Source: Bacilli bacterium
Lineage (GTDB): Bacteria; Bacillota_I; Bacilli_A; RFN20; CAG-826
Reading direction: 5' to 3'
Length of the DNA: 64,000 nt
Assembly: GCA_017470115.1 (NCBI GenBank)
Contig: JAFUEZ010000008.1
Location: 104 to 64,103 of the forward strand
Position 1 is the first letter of the stretch, and every line of letters begins with the position of its first letter. The notes beneath the pieces are model-generated. The model made no database searches and was not told where the DNA came from. It was given only the letters and a program-made list of their open reading frames with translations. The position numbers and the translations under genes are program-made. Positions 2,956-62,302 of the stretch are shown in pieces.

Positions 2956-3928
2956 GAAGAAAATAAATCCTTATCAAGCTGCTTTAAGTGAGATTTCTCC
3001 TCTTGCAGCTAGACATAAGAAGAAGAAAATAACTCGTAGTAATATCGAGCTTCTTGTCATGGTTTCGCTTGGAATCATCTTTATTGCTGTTTTTGCTTAT
3101 CTTCCTATGTTTGGTCTTATTCTTGCTTTTAAGAGCGGTGATGGTTATTTAAACATAATGGATGCTATCTTCAAGAGTCAATGGGCAGGATTTGACAATT
3201 TTGCAGCTTTCTTTGAAGATCCAGATTTTAAAGATGTCATTTTAAATACAATTGGACTTAATACTCTTCAACTTTGTATTAACTTCCCACTTCCTATTAT
3301 ATTTGCAATTCTTCTTAGCGAATTACCTTGGAAGAGAATTAGAAAAGTTATCCAAGTTATTACTTATTTCCCATATTTCCTTTCTTGGATTATTTATGGT
3401 GGTATTATTCTTGCTCTTATTAATAGTGATGGAATTGTAAATACTATCCTTATTAATTTAGGAATTGTCGATGAAGCGGTTAATTTTGGTGAAGCACAAT
3501 ATTTCTGGGCAACAATCATTATCACATCTCTTTTAAAAGGAATGGGATGGGGCTCAATAATTTATGTTGCTGCAATTGCAGGAATTGATCCTCAACTTTA
3601 TGAAGCAGCAGATATGGATGGAGCTACAAGATGGCATAGAATTATCCATATTACAGTTCCTTCAATTGCACCAACTATAGTTTTATTCTTTATTCTTTCA
3701 GTAAGTGGAATTCTAAATAATGGTTTTGATCATATTTGGACATTCCAAAATCAAATTAACTTAGCTCGAAGCGAAGTTTTAGACACGTTTATTTATAAAT
3801 ATGGTGTTGTTAATCTTCAATATTCATATACTACAGCAGCAGGTTTCTTTAAATCTGTTGTTGCTATCGTTTTACTTGGTGTTGGCAACTTTATAGCTAA
3901 AAAGACAACAGGAAATGGTGTTTTCTAA
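2936..3928 (+). CDS. Carbohydrate ABC transporter permease (CUT1, LplB/YtcP-like)
   Basis: Six or more transmembrane segments. EAA-like loop EAADMDGATRWHRIIHITVPSIAPT. The ATG at 2936 is preceded by RBS AGAGGAAG, so it is preferred over the TTG at 2918. The start overlaps the LacI 3' end. Confidence 0.85.
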   Translation: MIPLLSKKKINPYQAALSEISPLAARHKKKKITRSNIELLVMVSLGIIFIAVFAYLPMFGLILAFKSGDGYLNIMDAIFKSQWAGFDNFAAFFEDPDFKDVILNTIGLNTLQLCINFPLPIIFAILLSELPWKRIRKVIQVITYFPYFLSWIIYGGIILALINSDGIVNTILINLGIVDEAVNFGEAQYFWATIIITSLLKGMGWGSIIYVAAIAGIDPQLYEAADMDGATRWHRIIHITVPSIAPTIVLFFILSVSGILNNGFDHIWTFQNQINLARSEVLDTFIYKYGVVNLQYSYTTAAGFFKSVVAIVLLGVGNFIAKKTTGNGVF

Positions 3929-54302: not shown

Positions 54303-55319
54303 ATGAAAGTACTTGTTACAGGTGGTTTAGGATTTATTGGATCACACACAGTTGTAAAATTAATTGAGAATAAATTTGATGTAGTTATCATTGATAATTT
54401 ATTCAATTCAAAGCTCGTTGTTTTAGACAGAATTGAAAAAATAACTGGAATTAGGCCGGTTTTTTATCAATTTGATGTTCAAAACAAAGAGAAATTAAGA
54501 GAAGTTTTCATTAAAGAAAAGCCTGAAGCAATTATTCATTTTGCAGGATATAAGGCTGTTGGAGAAAGCGTCGCTAAACCTCTTATGTACTATCAGAATA
54601 ATTTGGAATCGACCTTTGCTTTACTTGATTGCATGGCTGAATTTAATGTTAAAAATTTAGTTTTTTCATCAAGTGCCACAGTTTATGGTTTACCAGATAA
54701 AGTTCCTCTAACTGAAGATTCACCTGTTAAATCAGCAACATCTCCATATGGAGAAACAAAAGTTATGATTGAAAGAATCTTAACTGATATTTGTGCTGTA
54801 AATAAGGATTATAACGTTGCTTTACTTAGATACTTTAATCCTATTGGAGCACATAAATCTGGATTGCTTGGAGAAGATCCAAACGGAATTCCAAATAATT
54901 TACTCCCATATATAAATAGAGTTGCTACAGGTCAATTGAAAGAGCTTAATGTTTTTGGTGATGATTATGATACTCCAGATGGAACTGGCGTAAGAGATTA
55001 TATCCATGTTGTTGATCTTGCAGAAGGTCATGTTTTAGCACTTAAAAAATTAGCTACAAATTCTGGTTTAGTAATTTATAACCTTGGAACAGGTAAAGGA
55101 ACCAGTGTTTTAGAAGTAGTTCATGCTTATGAAAAAGCTACTGGCATCAAAATCCCATATATAATAAAAGAAAGAAGACCAGGTGATGTTCCTGAAAATT
55201 ATGCTGGTACTGATAAAGCAAGAAAAGAATTAGGATTTAAGTGCAAATTTAATGTTGAAGATGCCTGCTTAGATGGTTATAACTTCCAAAAAGCCGAAAA
55301 CGAAAGAAACGGAAAATAA
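54303..55319 (+). CDS. galE: UDP-glucose 4-epimerase
   Basis: VTGGLGFIGSH Rossmann motif. YGETKVMIE catalytic YxxxK. The ATG at 54303 has AGGAG upstream. Confidence 0.85.
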   Translation: MKVLVTGGLGFIGSHTVVKLIENKFDVVIIDNLFNSKLVVLDRIEKITGIRPVFYQFDVQNKEKLREVFIKEKPEAIIHFAGYKAVGESVAKPLMYYQNNLESTFALLDCMAEFNVKNLVFSSSATVYGLPDKVPLTEDSPVKSATSPYGETKVMIERILTDICAVNKDYNVALLRYFNPIGAHKSGLLGEDPNGIPNNLLPYINRVATGQLKELNVFGDDYDTPDGTGVRDYIHVVDLAEGHVLALKKLATNSGLVIYNLGTGKGTSVLEVVHAYEKATGIKIPYIIKERRPGDVPENYAGTDKARKELGFKCKFNVEDACLDGYNFQKAENERNGK

Positions 55320-55786
55320 TGAAAACTTTGTATGTATTAACTGGGCTACCTGGAAGTGGAAAAACAACCTGGGCAGCCGAATTTAAAGCTACTCATAAAG
55401 AGCCAACTTTTATCGTTGCAAGTGATGATATAAGAGTAGAACTTGGTGGATATCCTCAGTATTTTAAAGAGGAACAAAAAGTTTGGGAATTATTCTATTC
55501 AAGAATGAATGAGCCATTATTTTATGGTGATGTAAATGTAATTATGGATTCTACTTGTTTAGAAGATAAATTTAGAAAATTAATTATTGAAAAATCAGGT
55601 AAATTTGATCGCAAGGTTCTCGTTTTTTTTAACATTTCTCCTTCGATATGTAAGGCCCGTAATGAAAATAGAGAGCTTGATAGAAGGGTCAAAGATGCAG
55701 TAATGGATACAATGATTGAAAATTTCCATTATCCAAATGATGAAATAATTTCCTTATACGATTCGATTTTGGTCGTATCTTTATAA
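55319..55786 (+). CDS. P-loop kinase (AAA_33/zeta-toxin-like nucleotide or polynucleotide kinase family)
   Basis: Walker A GLPGSGKTT. Small size (155 aa). The start overlaps the galE stop. Confidence 0.55.
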   Translation: MKTLYVLTGLPGSGKTTWAAEFKATHKEPTFIVASDDIRVELGGYPQYFKEEQKVWELFYSRMNEPLFYGDVNVIMDSTCLEDKFRKLIIEKSGKFDRKVLVFFNISPSICKARNENRELDRRVKDAVMDTMIENFHYPNDEIISLYDSILVVSL

Positions 55787-55790
55787 ATAT

Positions 55791-55866
55791 TGCCCTCTAG
55801 ACTAACGGTTAGGTCACATGTCTCTGAAACATGTTATTATTGGTTCGAATCCAATGAGGGCAGCCA
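55791..55866 (+). tRNA. tRNA-Gln (anticodon CUG), CCA encoded
   Basis: Manual fold. Acceptor TGCCCTC/GAGGGCA. D-arm GACT-AACGGTTA-GGTC. Anticodon stem CATGT/ACATG with loop CTCTGAA (anticodon CTG). Variable loop TTATT. T-arm ATTGG-TTCGAAT-CCAAT. Discriminator G plus CCA. Total 76 nt. Confidence 0.8.
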
Positions 55867-55878
55867 ATGCCAATACAT

Positions 55879-55903
55879 TGCCTGATTAATTTCAGGCTTT
55901 TTT
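55879..55903 (+). terminator. Intrinsic terminator after the tRNA
   Basis: GCCTGA-ttaatt-TCAGGC followed by TTTTTTG. Confidence 0.7.
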
Positions 55904-55960
55904 GTTGATTATTATTGAAATGTATCGCAAATGTGATACAATTTAGTCGAGGAAAAATAT

Positions 55961-56278
55961 ATGGCGAAAACTGAAACTGTTCATACAAGAGTTATTGGTG
56001 AAATCAAAGAAAAAGCTGACAAGATTTTTAATCGTTTAGGATTAACAACAAGCCAAGCTATTACTCTTTTTTTGACTGCATCAGTAAACAAAAATGGGTT
56101 ACCTTTTGAATTAACATTGCCGGATGATGAGACTGATTTAACTTTCGCAAAATCAATTGCCACTGTTGACGGTGTACCTCCTTCTCAAGATGCGCAAAGA
56201 ATTATGAGATTATATTCACGTGGTGAAATTGATTATGAAACTGCAGAATTCGCTATAGCGAGATTATATAAACAATGA
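55961..56278 (+). CDS. Antitoxin with DinJ/RelB-like N-terminal domain and C-terminal extension (Fic-associated)
   Basis: RVIGEIKEKADKIFNRLGLTTSQAITLFLTASVNKNGLPFEL matches the RelB/DinJ ribbon-helix-helix region. It overlaps the downstream Fic gene by 4 nt (ATGA). Confidence 0.7.
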   Translation: MAKTETVHTRVIGEIKEKADKIFNRLGLTTSQAITLFLTASVNKNGLPFELTLPDDETDLTFAKSIATVDGVPPSQDAQRIMRLYSRGEIDYETAEFAIARLYKQ

Positions 56279-56997
56279 AGGATCCATATGTTTATGAAGG
56301 CACAAATGTGCTAAAGAATAAATTAAATATAAGAGATGAAGCAACATTAGAAAAAGCCGAGTCTGATTTTGTTGGTCTTGCAGCTAATAGATTAAGACAT
56401 AGTGATTTCGTTATAAAAAATATTCAAGATGGACTAAAAATTCATAAATTTTTATTTTCTAACTTATATGATTGGGCAGGGCTGCCGCGAACTATTGATA
56501 TTTTTAAAGGTGAATCATTATTAGGCGGTCGCTCAATTGATTATGTTTATGCAACCTATATTGATAAAGCTTTAAATGATCTAAACAAAGAATTTCAAGA
56601 AGTAGACTGGGATGCATTAGATTCAAAAGAAAAAATAGAAAAGATATGCTATTTTGTTACAGAATTTTGGCATATCCATCCTTTTAGAGAAGGAAATACA
56701 AGAACTTCAGCAATGCTCTTATATTTTCTAATCAAAAAGGCAAATTTGCATGTTAATATTGATTTTCTATCAAAAAATGGTAAGTATTTCAGAAACGCAC
56801 TAGCGTTAAATTCCTTATATAGTAACTCCAAGCCAGAATATATTTTAGGAATCGTTACAGATTCAGTAACGCTTAAAAATATATCGAGCAAAAAATATGA
56901 AACAATTGAAGGATTTGAGGTTAATAAGTATTCGTACTCAAATCACACAATAGAGAAAATTAAAACAATAGAAAAACCATCTGATTGGCATAAATAG
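56275..56997 (+). CDS. Fic/Doc-family protein with deviant Fic motif HPFREGNTRTSA
   Basis: The canonical Fic motif is HPFx(D/E)GNGRxxR. Here G8 is replaced by T and the second Arg by A. N-terminal YEGTNVLKNKLNI is typical of Fic toxins. Confidence 0.8.
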   Translation: MKDPYVYEGTNVLKNKLNIRDEATLEKAESDFVGLAANRLRHSDFVIKNIQDGLKIHKFLFSNLYDWAGLPRTIDIFKGESLLGGRSIDYVYATYIDKALNDLNKEFQEVDWDALDSKEKIEKICYFVTEFWHIHPFREGNTRTSAMLLYFLIKKANLHVNIDFLSKNGKYFRNALALNSLYSNSKPEYILGIVTDSVTLKNISSKKYETIEGFEVNKYSYSNHTIEKIKTIEKPSDWHK

Positions 56998-57051
56998 GCC
57001 TTTTTGATTGAAAGTTATGTTTCGTATCGCAAACACAAAGACAATCATAAA

Positions 57052-57090
57052 TTACAGTATCGATACAAATCGGTACTGTTTTTTGTTTTT
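57052..57090 (+). terminator. Intrinsic terminator after Fic
   Basis: ACAGTATCGA-tacaaa-TCGGTACTGT forms a 10-bp stem with one G-U pair, followed by TTTTTTGTTTTTT. Confidence 0.75.
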
Positions 57091-57782
57091 TCACATCAAT
57101 TCGCATAAACTTTGACACCAATTGAATGAAAAACTTACAGAAATATACAGATTTGTAAACAAAATATTATGTGAGTAAGAGCTAAGTAGCAAAAAATAAC
57201 GCACACATGTTGTAATGTGTACTTTTCTTTTTAATATCTTTGATATTTTCTTGACAGTTATCGATGTGTCCGATGAAAATATAAGTGTCAAGAGGGATGG
57301 GAGACAATAAAAGACCACCCAATACGTCGGGTCAGAGACCTTAAACCTGTCCAATTCGTGGTTGCGCACCTTAAAACGCTTTTTTTGTACCATGAAAAAC
57401 TATAAAGAATCTTGTTGCTTACTATTGCATAAAGATGCCGAAAAATATATAAAATTGCCCGGTAAAGATTTTATAATTGAATCTAAAGATTTTAAGAATA
57501 GGAAAAGATATATTTTGAGATTTTACAAAGGAAACTTCTTACATTTGACTGTTAACTCCGTTGCAGAAACATACATTGCATTAATAGAGGATTTCTCGTT
57601 TGAAATCCTTTTTTTATTTATAAATAAATGTAAATTAAGAAAAATTGCAGTTTTATAATATTTATTATTTCTTCATTTTAAATATAAAATGATTTTAACT
57701 ACTTTTTAAGTTAAAATTTAAGTAATCTTTAAGAATGCGAAATATATTTTAATCATAAAGGATACTTTTAGGAGGTGTATTT

Positions 57783-60076: not shown

Positions 60077-62302
60077 ATGAAGAAGATAAATTTAATAGCT
60101 ATTATTCCTATGATTTTAATGGGCATTGTTAGTTGCGAAGGAACTTATGATGGAACTGGAGAAGATGTCTTAACTCCTGTTGAAGTAAGCAAACTAAAAG
60201 AAAATTTAGCTAATTTACAAAGTGTGACTCTTAATCAGCATCTTAGTGGAGAAACGCTTAGTAAGCAAAGTTTAGGTGAAGGCTTGCCAAGTGTTGATGT
60301 ATTCCAATCAATGGACATTGTTCAAACCGCAGCAACTTCAAATAATGGAGATACAGCATCTCACTATGAAGGAACTTCTAAAGCTGGATATTCTAATTTA
60401 TCTAACCTTGCTAAAGAATTAAATATTTCAAGAGACACACTTATCGAGAGACTTAAAAGCAAAGTTAAATATTTTGATTTAGATCATGATCGTGCTGTTC
60501 TTGAAGAAGATGGTGGAGGCGATTATTCTTATGAATGGTTTTCATCAAAATACAATCAAAAAATTAGTTATACAGAAGGAGATAGGTATCCAACTTTCAG
60601 TCTTGATGAAGCAGGAAGTAATGCCATTAGCGAGATTAAAGATACTGTAAATAGAATTATTGATGAAGGTGTTTTTGATAAAAAGACAAGTACATATACA
60701 ATTCATACTGATGTTATTGGCGACCTTTTTGAACTTGATGTTGAAACAGTAAGTTTATATATTGAGCACAATTATCCAAAAAGATTAACTGCTGAAACTG
60801 ATGATTATAAGGTTTCAATTTCTTTAAGTGATTATAATAAAACAACAGTATCAGTTCCTTCTGATTTAGAACCAGCTCCATGTGAACATAATGGATCTAG
60901 ATTATATAAAGATTATGGCGATACTCATCGAATGTATTGCTCTTCATGTAGACAATTTTTAGCACCACAAGAAAACCATCAATTACTCGATACTCAAAAA
61001 CATCAATATTGTACAAGATGTGGTGAAATTACTCATTTAGCAGAAGCAGAAAAGGAAAAGTATTCTGTAGAAGTTGATGGAGAAAAAGTATCTTATTTTT
61101 CACTCGAAAAGAGTAAAACAAACAACAATTATTATGCTTCAAGTACGAACTTTTATTATCATAACGGATCTAAGAGACTTATCGCCACTTCGGACTTGTT
61201 AGTTGAATATTGGCCAGATGTAGAATTACTCCTTGTCAAAAAGGCTTATGATCCAAATGATAATAGTTTGACTAACGTTCATACTCCTGAAGAAATCAAA
61301 TATGCATGTTATAAAGCTACAAAATATACTTATGAAGCATTTAGTGGTGTAAAAGCAAATGAACATCCTTCATTAATGGATGGCACATTTACAAGAAGTG
61401 AATATCCTGAAATAAAGAGAACCTCTAAACTTGCCTCAACTTGCGAAGCATATCATATCGATGTTTCTCATGGACCAGCTGAAACAACAACAGATGAAAT
61501 TGATCAATGTCACTCTCACTCACATGCAGGATGTGGAATTTGTGGAGAAGAAACATATTCTTACTATGAATCTAATCATACATTTGATGATGGTCTACCA
61601 GTTAAAAAGCAAATCGATGAATGCCATTATGAACTCAATAAAAAATGTACAAAATGTAATAAATTATTTGATACAGATAATAATGGCGTAATTACTGGTC
61701 ATAAAAATGCAACATATAAACTTTTAACTTCTGATCATAGCGGATACATGGCTCTCAAATATGGAATTACTTCGATTAATAGTAGCCATAAATACATTGA
61801 AGTTAACTGTCCAACATGTAAAGAAGAAGCTTTATATGAAATCTCAAGTTCGATTTATAGCGATCATCTTAACGGCAAACCTTCACGTATTTATTATGGA
61901 TACTTTTTAAAAGATGGTAAGGTTTCAAAAATATATAACGGATACATCGAAATTCCTCACAAAACAAATGATGAAGGTATTTGTGAATTCTGTGGGAAAA
62001 ATTATCTTGTTATTGAAGTAAGTGATGGCGTTAAATTCTTGCTTAATTATTCATTAGATAGTTCAAATAACGTTACATATATTAGTTATTCTGATGTTTC
62101 ATTTAAATATGCAACTTTTGATTATCAAAATTTAGAAGATGCAAAACAAAAAAGAACATATTACAAAGATAATGAAAGAACACAAATTATTTGTAGTTTA
62201 ATTGAATCGACATATTATGGTAGATATATTGAACTCTTCAATAGTTCAGGAACTTCAGTTTATAAAGCAGAAATTAATCAACCATTACCAAAAATACGTT
62301 AA
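60077..62302 (+). CDS. Large lipoprotein with multiple CxxC / His-rich metal-binding-like motifs (741 aa), unknown function
   Basis: Lipobox IVSCEG. Six or more CxxC pairs (YCSSCRQF, YCTRCGEI, GCGICGEE, KCTKCNK, NCPTCKEE, ICEFCGKN) plus CHSHSH. RBS AGGAGG. Confidence 0.55.
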   Translation: MKKINLIAIIPMILMGIVSCEGTYDGTGEDVLTPVEVSKLKENLANLQSVTLNQHLSGETLSKQSLGEGLPSVDVFQSMDIVQTAATSNNGDTASHYEGTSKAGYSNLSNLAKELNISRDTLIERLKSKVKYFDLDHDRAVLEEDGGGDYSYEWFSSKYNQKISYTEGDRYPTFSLDEAGSNAISEIKDTVNRIIDEGVFDKKTSTYTIHTDVIGDLFELDVETVSLYIEHNYPKRLTAETDDYKVSISLSDYNKTTVSVPSDLEPAPCEHNGSRLYKDYGDTHRMYCSSCRQFLAPQENHQLLDTQKHQYCTRCGEITHLAEAEKEKYSVEVDGEKVSYFSLEKSKTNNNYYASSTNFYYHNGSKRLIATSDLLVEYWPDVELLLVKKAYDPNDNSLTNVHTPEEIKYACYKATKYTYEAFSGVKANEHPSLMDGTFTRSEYPEIKRTSKLASTCEAYHIDVSHGPAETTTDEIDQCHSHSHAGCGICGEETYSYYESNHTFDDGLPVKKQIDECHYELNKKCTKCNKLFDTDNNGVITGHKNATYKLLTSDHSGYMALKYGITSINSSHKYIEVNCPTCKEEALYEISSSIYSDHLNGKPSRIYYGYFLKDGKVSKIYNGYIEIPHKTNDEGICEFCGKNYLVIEVSDGVKFLLNYSLDSSNNVTYISYSDVSFKYATFDYQNLEDAKQKRTYYKDNERTQIICSLIESTYYGRYIELFNSSGTSVYKAEINQPLPKIR

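Follow-up and report, generated by a model that had tools for sequence, protein, structure and literature searches.

We analysed a window of 64,000 nucleotides (nt) from a Bacilli bacterium of an uncultured rumen or gut lineage (GenBank assembly GCA_017470115.1, contig JAFUEZ010000008.1), an AT-rich stretch with a GC content of 31%, in which two adjacent genes on the forward strand form a putative toxin-antitoxin (TA) cassette. The first open reading frame (ORF; 55961-56278) encodes an antitoxin of 105 amino acids (aa) and the second (56275-56997) encodes a Fic toxin of 240 aa. The two genes overlap by ATGA, with the toxin ATG (56275-56277) lying over the antitoxin TGA (56276-56278), and a promoter that contains an imperfect palindrome precedes the antitoxin gene. 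The Fic/antitoxin gene pairing was kept in more than 60 loci, and the relatives of the cassette were labelled as Bacilli, Erysipelotrichaceae or Candidatus Enteromonas metagenome-assembled genomes. We conclude that the locus is most likely a chromosomal type II TA cassette that belongs to class I FicTA and has a bifunctional antitoxin and, judged from its sequence, the cassette is probably active.

The earlier note on this DNA had proposed a Fic toxin paired with an antitoxin and an ATGA overlap of their genes. Both were borne out, with the antitoxin gene upstream and translationally coupled. The toxin matched the Pfam Fic family (PF02661) with an E-value of 2.4e-13 and 51.1 bits, above the curated cut-off of 24, and gave partial matches to NCBIfam models for VbhT and for E. 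coli Fic, with scores well short of their equivalog cut-offs. The nearest solved sequences were VbhT (2.7e-20), Fic-1 (8wt0) and EcFicT. An AlphaFold2 (AF2) model of the toxin, built on 84 sequences, reached a predicted local distance difference test (pLDDT) score of 93 and a predicted template modelling (pTM) score of 0.91. A Foldseek search with this model returned BepC, VbhT and EcFicT as top matches and a probability of 1.00 to many FIC structures; the target-normalised TM scores against VbhT, EcFicT and Bep were 0.83-0.88, and the model superposed on VbhT/EcFicT at 2.4-2.8 Å. The N-terminus (MKDPY...) contains the DPY motif (residues 3-5) and the signature motif contains R0 (R138), two hallmarks of class I FicT described for EcFicT and VbhT (PMC5033356). 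The toxin carries no inhibitory helix in cis and a separate small partner is encoded immediately upstream, as in class I FicTA systems.

The active-site motif HPFREGNTRTSA spans residues 135-146 (56677-56712, forward strand; H135-P-F-R-E-G-N-T142-R-T-S-A146). It supplies the catalytic His (H135) of the HxFx(D/E)xNxR signature, which in Fic domains sits between helices 4 and 5, and retains the Phe, R0, the Mg-binding Glu (E139), the Gly, the Asn and R1 (R143). Two features of the canonical HxFx[D/E]GNGRxxR motif are lost, as Thr142 takes the place of the second Gly in the GNG anion nest and Ala146 that of R2. The motif HPFREGNTRT[STA][AS] was found in 119 of the 120 closest homologue clusters (66-96% identity), the remaining one giving no motif match. 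When the search was widened to the nearest 150 representatives of 50%-identity clusters, with identities as low as 31%, practically all full-length sequences carried GN(T/S)R with a variable, non-Arg last position, and the canonical motif occurred in a single representative. Since the GNTR variant is present in almost all of these representatives, it points to a large clade under selection; a whole-library search returned 938 cluster representatives at an E-value of 1e-10 or better. Across the toxin alignment H135, F137, N141 and R143 were invariant and conservation of D3, W132, R138, E139, G140 and T142 was 90% or higher, while the R2 position of GNTR members held A, S, C, V, I, M, T or L and never Arg. 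A further difference lies just upstream of the motif, where a near-invariant Trp of the GNTR clade (EFWHIHPF; W132 codon 56668-56670) occupies the aligned position of the Asn located three residues before the His of VbhT (ELNALHPF). Work on EcFicT linked an asparagine that comes before the Fic signature motif to the adenine pocket (PMC5033356). The Asn of VbhT may be the counterpart of this residue, and in the alignments the Asn-to-Trp exchange is a third clade-specific active-site change beside the Gly-to-Thr substitution and the loss of R2.

This sequence variant has been catalogued before. Hxxx[D|E]GNTRxx[!R] is one of the five motif groups of Fic/Doc proteins defined by Khater & Mohanty in 2015, who noted the Thr, the missing last Arg and a 'modified inhibitory helix', and suggested inactivity or another function (PMC4454073). 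HPFREGNTRTSA agrees with the group definition, with Thr for the second Gly and no terminal Arg. By its sequence the toxin is a new member of this large Hxxx[D/E]GN(T/S)Rxx[not R] clade, and the motif itself is not new. The earlier note was right about the lost Gly and R2 and overstated the novelty, as the motif was catalogued in 2015 (PMC4454073) and a toxic member was reported in 2017 (PMC5651007). In the latter study, Sprenger et al. showed that Fic2 of Campylobacter fetus subsp. venerealis is toxic in E. coli and that the H184A substitution abolishes its toxicity (PMC5651007). Fic2 lowered the amount of 70S ribosomes and raised that of free subunits, with ribosome subunit joining impaired (PMC5651007). 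Fic2 resembles the toxin studied here in its signature (HPFREGNTRTIA versus HPFREGNTRTSA) and as a class I protein without a cis inhibitory helix, but its neutralising partner is Fic1, an adjacent class II Fic protein, rather than a RelB-FicA fusion. In the literature after 2017 we found nothing that resolves the chemistry or the target of GNTR Fic proteins.

Could the toxin be an ordinary AMPylating FicT that adenylylates GyrB/ParE like VbhT, YeFicT and Fic-1, and in which the Gly-to-Thr and R2 changes are tolerated? Its closest solved relatives, by sequence as well as by fold, are gyrase-targeting FicT toxins, and it has kept DPY, R0 and R1 as well as the Asn and the Mg-binding Glu. However, R2 binds ATP at its gamma-phosphate and orients the alpha-phosphate (PMC4454073, PMC8401265), and this residue is missing throughout the clade at a position that is variable. 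The conserved Thr142, the near-invariant Trp aligned with the Asn linked to the adenine pocket and the ribosome phenotype of the sole studied member, Fic2, likewise speak against ordinary AMPylation, which we consider improbable. A different chemistry is a reasonable inference, although the idea is not new. The earlier note had also raised Doc-type phosphorylation, which is not specifically indicated here, as the diagnostic Lys of Doc is absent. The Phd/Doc system resembles the present cassette in having a Fido-fold toxin that lacks R2 and has a non-Gly residue at motif position 8, and in its antitoxin, which binds DNA with the N-terminus and the toxin with the C-terminus. It differs in that position 8 of Doc is Lys (HxFx[D/N][A/G]NKR), whereas it is Thr here. 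This Lys supports the inverted ATP of the Doc kinase reaction. The toxin scored 16.1 bits against the Doc model TIGR01550, under the cut-off of 38.65.

A second alternative holds that the Fic protein is catalytically dead or non-toxic, as has been proposed for EcFicT, or that the two proteins form a de-modifying complex like Fic-1-AntF, so that the pair acts as a regulator. The motif does depart from the AMPylation consensus, EcFicT, whose motif is degenerate, probably does not bind ATP (PMC5033356), and 8wt0 is presented as a TA complex that has deAMPylase activity. Nevertheless, across a clade that extends to 31% identity the His, Phe, Asn and R1 do not vary and at least 90% of sequences keep the Glu, which argues for retained catalysis, and the toxicity of Fic2 depends on its His (PMC5651007). 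In two related loci only the toxin is inactivated and the antitoxin is kept. In locus L006 (1783-2505), codon E22 has become a stop in an otherwise 94%-identical toxin gene next to an intact antitoxin gene, and in locus L097 (555-698) the toxin is reduced to 48 codons beside a retained antitoxin. Such toxin-only inactivation is how a harmful gene would be expected to decay, and we regard a dead or purely regulatory Fic protein as very improbable.

The antitoxin (55961-56278) comprises two parts, a ribbon-helix-helix (RHH) domain at residues 1 to ~55 and a predicted three-helix VbhA/FicA-like domain at residues ~56 to 105. The RelB/DinJ identity of the N-terminus, already recognised in the earlier note, was confirmed by matches to Pfam RelB (PF04221; E-value 1.6e-12, 47.6 bits, cut-off 22.4) and to TIGR02384 RelB_DinJ (70.7 bits, cut-off 45.65), and its best match in the PDB was V. 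cholerae DinJ (5e-8). The profile scan suggested in that note as a check of the pair returned both families, Fic and RelB_dinJ, above their cut-offs. The RHH domain and the palindromic predicted operator over the promoter are shared with RelB/RelE and DinJ/YafQ. In contrast to these systems, the gene downstream of the antitoxin encodes a Fic protein instead of a RelE/YafQ-fold RNase, and the predicted C-terminal toxin-binding part is unrelated to that of RelB or DinJ.

The C-terminal tail of ~50 aa, for which the earlier note had considered a Fic-inhibitory role, proved to be real and highly conserved. Its consensus, FA.S[VI]ATVDG.PS..A..I..LY..G.IDYETA.FAI.R.Y, shows that residues ~56-105 are conserved as strongly as the RHH domain. 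The Pfam VbhA family (PF18495) matched residues 68-93 of the antitoxin weakly (E-value 0.027-0.11, under the 25.9-bit cut-off) and was also matched by 11 members of a diverse set of 14 tails and stand-alone relatives, the best with an E-value of 2.4e-5. In the AF2 model the tail forms three helices (58-67, 76-86 and 92-104), which fits the published architecture of FicA, a protein of three helices whose inhibitory motif lies at the C-terminus of the first helix (PMC8401265). Foldseek matched the antitoxin model to DinJ in its RHH part and to the FicA homologue BiaA (5eu0_B), the latter with a probability of 0.91, a target-normalised TM score of 0.61 and 2.8 Å, at a non-significant E-value of 0.75. 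From the VbhA match, the alignment and the AF2 model we located the segment homologous to (S/T)xxxE(G/N) at S65-I-A-T-V-D70-G71 (56153-56173; D70 56168-56170), where D70 and G71 are invariant and helix 58-67 stops just before them. The earlier note could not place this motif because Asp stands in for the Glu and the Ser/Thr does not fall in register; the homologous segment is present, while the canonical Glu is not. These features support an inhibitory role, and the tail is predicted to be the Fic-neutralising part of the antitoxin.

The arrangement is comparable to VbhT/VbhA, EcFicT/EcFicA, Bep/BiaA and Fic-1/AntF, in which a small upstream antitoxin gene also overlaps the gene of a FIC-domain toxin. 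The predicted fold, the DPY motif and R0, and an antitoxin part, here predicted, of three helices whose critical segment lies where helix 1 ends are common to these class I FicTA systems and the present cassette. The differences are that the toxin here lacks the second Gly and R2, that the antitoxin carries Asp-Gly in place of (S/T)xxxE(G/N), and that an N-terminal RelB/DinJ domain is present, whereas the solved FicA, VbhA and BiaA are described as three-helix proteins only (PMC8401265). A fusion of RHH and FicA parts with a conserved operator is apparently undescribed; we found no description of one, and public annotation names such proteins only as 'RelB/DinJ family antitoxin'.

The two partners changed together. 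In canonical systems, the inhibitory Glu forms a salt bridge with R2 (PMC5033356, PMC8401265). Distant GNTR toxins were paired either with RelB-fused antitoxins (...STGGNG...) or with stand-alone antitoxins of 61-80 aa that carry ...IDG..., ...LDG..., ...SLLGA... or ...IDS..., and RefSeq names two plasmid-borne stand-alone partners of GNTR Fic proteins 'antitoxin VbhA family protein'. Across ~60 non-redundant GN[TS]R pairs the Glu position held Asp in most, Gly in others and Glu once. The sole canonical relative in the sample, HPFREGNGRTQR (GNGRxxR) in locus L098 (1000-1491), has a 60-aa upstream partner whose SVELEC segment keeps the Glu, and by sequence this pair is a natural control for the co-variation. 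Judged from these alignments, both partners of the Glu-R2 bridge are changed together in GN[TS]R pairs. As R2 is absent and the Glu replaced by Asp or Gly, neutralisation probably proceeds via steric occlusion and a hydrophobic embrace, not via a Glu-R2 lock.

We also examined the region upstream of the antitoxin gene. The best promoter-like site (55915-55942, forward strand) is of the sigma-70 type and agrees with the consensus at 10 of 12 positions, with a -35 element TTGAAA (55915-55920), a 16-nt spacer and an extended -10 element TGaTACAAT (55934-55942) in which TG precedes the second hexamer. The spacer and the -10 element are occupied by the imperfect palindrome TGTATCGCAAATGTGATACA (TGTATCgCAa|aTGtGATACA), in which 8 of 10 pairs match and the outer six are perfect. 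The earlier note had put this palindrome at 55919-55938; it is present, but lies 2 nt further right, at 55921-55940. In all 31 RelB-fused loci examined, the sequence TGTrTCGCAAnnGTGATACAAT was found 26-29 nt before the antitoxin ATG within otherwise unrelated flanks. The site was kept even with toxins that are only 42% identical (TGTATATCAAAAGTGATACAAT, with the half-sites 2 nt closer), and it was absent from the loci whose stand-alone antitoxin has no RelB domain. The presence of the site tracks the presence of the RHH domain, which is the signature expected for an autoregulatory operator. The proposal of the earlier note that the palindrome is such an operator is supported by its position in the promoter and its conservation in the 31 loci, and we predict that the RHH domain binds there. 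The antitoxin gene is preceded by a GAGG Shine-Dalgarno sequence (55949-55952) that forms a conserved 'gagG' column in the alignment.

A second copy of the left half of the operator, GTATCGCAAA, lies 27 nt past the fic stop codon (57024-57033, compared with 55922-55931 upstream). These are the only two copies in the 64 kb, against 0.05 expected. The downstream copy was found at +66-70 in close relatives only, beside a degenerate copy ATGTATCGGATTACAAAC, and the window looks like the product of a deletion between the GTATCGCAAA copy and the degenerate one. A role as a conserved second operator was rejected, since the copy is confined to the closest subgroup; a recombination scar is more likely.

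Several observations weigh against a FicTA cassette with a bifunctional, autoregulating antitoxin. All VbhA matches of the tails score below the Pfam gathering cut-off (25.9 bits), and a profile of the tail searched against the PDB sequences retrieved none of VbhA, EcFicA and BiaA, with chance helices in SepRS on top, so the VbhA/FicA homology rests on the Pfam matches and the fold. The placement of D70 at the mouth of the active site is itself inferred. A palindrome of this kind is not unusual on its own, as the window contains 17 such palindromes compared with 12.1 ± 3.2 in first-order Markov simulations. The conservation of the operator is partly confounded with the -10 element embedded in its right half, and the operator alignment was anchored on GTGATACA. 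Finally, EcFicT is an example of a FicT with a degenerate motif that can be non-toxic (PMC5033356).

The cassette begins ~10 nt past the CCA end of a tRNA-Gln(CTG) gene (55791-55866, forward strand; found by ARAGORN, Rfam tRNA 61.4 bits), which is a likely insertion landmark. Directly 3' of a tRNA or transfer-messenger RNA (tmRNA) gene and on the same strand is also where the ~1.2-kb cassette lies in roughly a third of the RelB-fused loci (the window and loci L002, L005, L007, L016-L020, L029, L059, L064-L067, L071, L079, L083 and L097). At least 11 tRNA identities were represented, including Gln, Trp, Leu-taa/-caa/-tag/-gag, Arg-acg/-tcg and Ser-cga/-gga/-tga, in addition to tmRNA, and cassettes with 93-98% protein identity sat after five different tRNAs. 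In 16 of 18 cases, 56-72 nt separated the CCA end from the right half of the operator. The left end of the cassette is marked by a terminator hairpin, ATTGCCTGATTAATTTCAGGC, followed by a T-run (55877-55903, hairpin 55880-55897, forward strand), which was identified by a terminator scan and left-end alignments. The hairpin is common to near-identical cassettes from ~10 nt past the CCA end, including those after tRNA-Leu and tRNA-Arg; it is unique in the window and occurs in other loci only at the left ends of cassettes. According to these comparisons the hairpin travels with the cassette.

Repeats were seen around some of the related cassettes. In L029 a 75-nt direct repeat of the tmRNA 3' end (2516-2590 versus 3777-3851) with 87% identity and compensatory T-arm changes surrounds the cassette, and att-like direct repeats of 33 nt (L020), 22 nt (L017) and 48 nt (L013) flank others. 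In L097 the whole tRNA-Leu together with its upstream flank is duplicated around the truncated cassette (28-147 versus 855-974). No integrase was found within 5-8 kb of the cassettes, or within 8 kb of the one in the window. An integrated island with an attR site was rejected for the window, in which no second tRNA-Gln 3' end exists at up to 3 mismatches; no att-like repeat was found there, and the one repeat seen was the downstream copy of the operator left half. A search for empty sites using the exact upstream 155-aa kinase sequence returned occupied sites only.

The cassette does not belong to a conserved neighbourhood: the neighbours in the window are missing from the loci of the relatives and are not syntenic between species. 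Genetic code 4, under which the TGA of the ATGA overlap would be read through, was rejected, as ORFs throughout the window stay open under table 11 and reach 1019 aa. An intrinsic terminator at 57054-57089 (forward strand), found by the terminator scan and common to L001 and L003, closes the operon. Between the cassette and a 722-aa Big_2/Cthe_2159 surface protein lies a stretch of ~780 bp without a called gene (57000-57782), in which a number of sites resemble promoters or terminators and a 98-aa ORF that starts with TTG (57362-57658) lacks a Pfam match. An Rfam scan of the whole window returned only the tRNA, with no match in this spacer. A 741-aa ORF without a Pfam match (60077-62302), of which a 736-aa strain variant exists, adjoins the Cthe_2159 surface protein. 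Just upstream of tRNA-Gln, a 155-aa AAA_33/KTI12-like P-loop kinase gene (55319-55786) with a weak Zeta_toxin match (7.9e-6) overlaps the stop codon of the preceding epimerase gene; it looks like a member of a housekeeping operon rather than a TA toxin.

This neighbourhood bears on a third possibility, which concerns the role of the cassette and is compatible with its being a FicTA system, namely that it serves mainly in anti-phage abortive infection. The toxin matches the PADLOC defence family PDC-S04 with an E-value of 4.6e-45, but PDC-S04 is a candidate family. Relatives of the toxin are common on plasmids, with 1382 records; such plasmids occur in Enterococcus, Acinetobacter, Lactococcus and Clostridia. 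GN(T/S)R is present in the three top plasmid matches that we inspected. GNTR Fic genes also occur on a few viral contigs; carriage by phages amounted to 7 weak matches in a phage collection and 7 distant ones in IMG/VR, none of them RelB-fused. Against this role, the genes that flank the cassette encode housekeeping and surface proteins (phosphofructokinase (PFK), epimerases, the AAA_33 kinase, the Big_2/Cthe_2159 protein and pyruvate:ferredoxin oxidoreductase (PFOR)), there is no defence island in the window around it, and no phage trigger is known. We consider a mainly anti-phage role rather unlikely.

Returning to the FicTA cassette with a bifunctional antitoxin, we propose that the single promoter (55915-55942) drives a translationally coupled bicistron, and that a dimer of the RelB/DinJ RHH domain binds TGTATC-N8-GATACA over the spacer and the -10 element and would thereby repress the operon. 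The three-helix FicA/VbhA-like domain would wrap around the toxin, with the end of helix 1 (TVD70G) at the mouth of the active site, and would probably neutralise it by occlusion and embrace as described above. Once freed, the toxin may covalently modify an essential target; judged by the sole studied member of the clade, this target probably belongs to translation or to the assembly of ribosomes. The orientation of the donor, or the donor itself, probably differs from that of canonical ATP-dependent AMPylation.

More tentatively, the GN(T/S)R chemistry might be non-AMPylating and act on a translation or ribosome-assembly target, the FicA-like inhibition might operate without a Glu-R2 lock, and the RelB-fused cassette might be mobilised in trans. 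That all of this holds together is on balance doubtful. If true, donor binding would be reshaped by Thr142, by the missing R2 and by the Trp that replaces Asn in the base pocket, and an integrase acting in trans, or another mechanism that recognises tRNA ends, would place a ~1.2-kb cassette without a recombinase of its own directly 3' of tRNA and tmRNA genes of many identities. The present member would be useful for study, being compact (240 aa + 105 aa), with separable DNA-binding and neutralising domains and a sharply defined predicted operator, and the natural co-variation of R2 loss with the Glu to Asp/Gly change shows which residues to swap. The annotation 'RelB/DinJ family' hides the Fic partnership of these antitoxins. 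If the cassette is indeed a minimal element mobilised in trans, its placement at tRNA and tmRNA genes would bear on how solitary TA systems spread in the reduced genomes of gut and rumen Bacilli.

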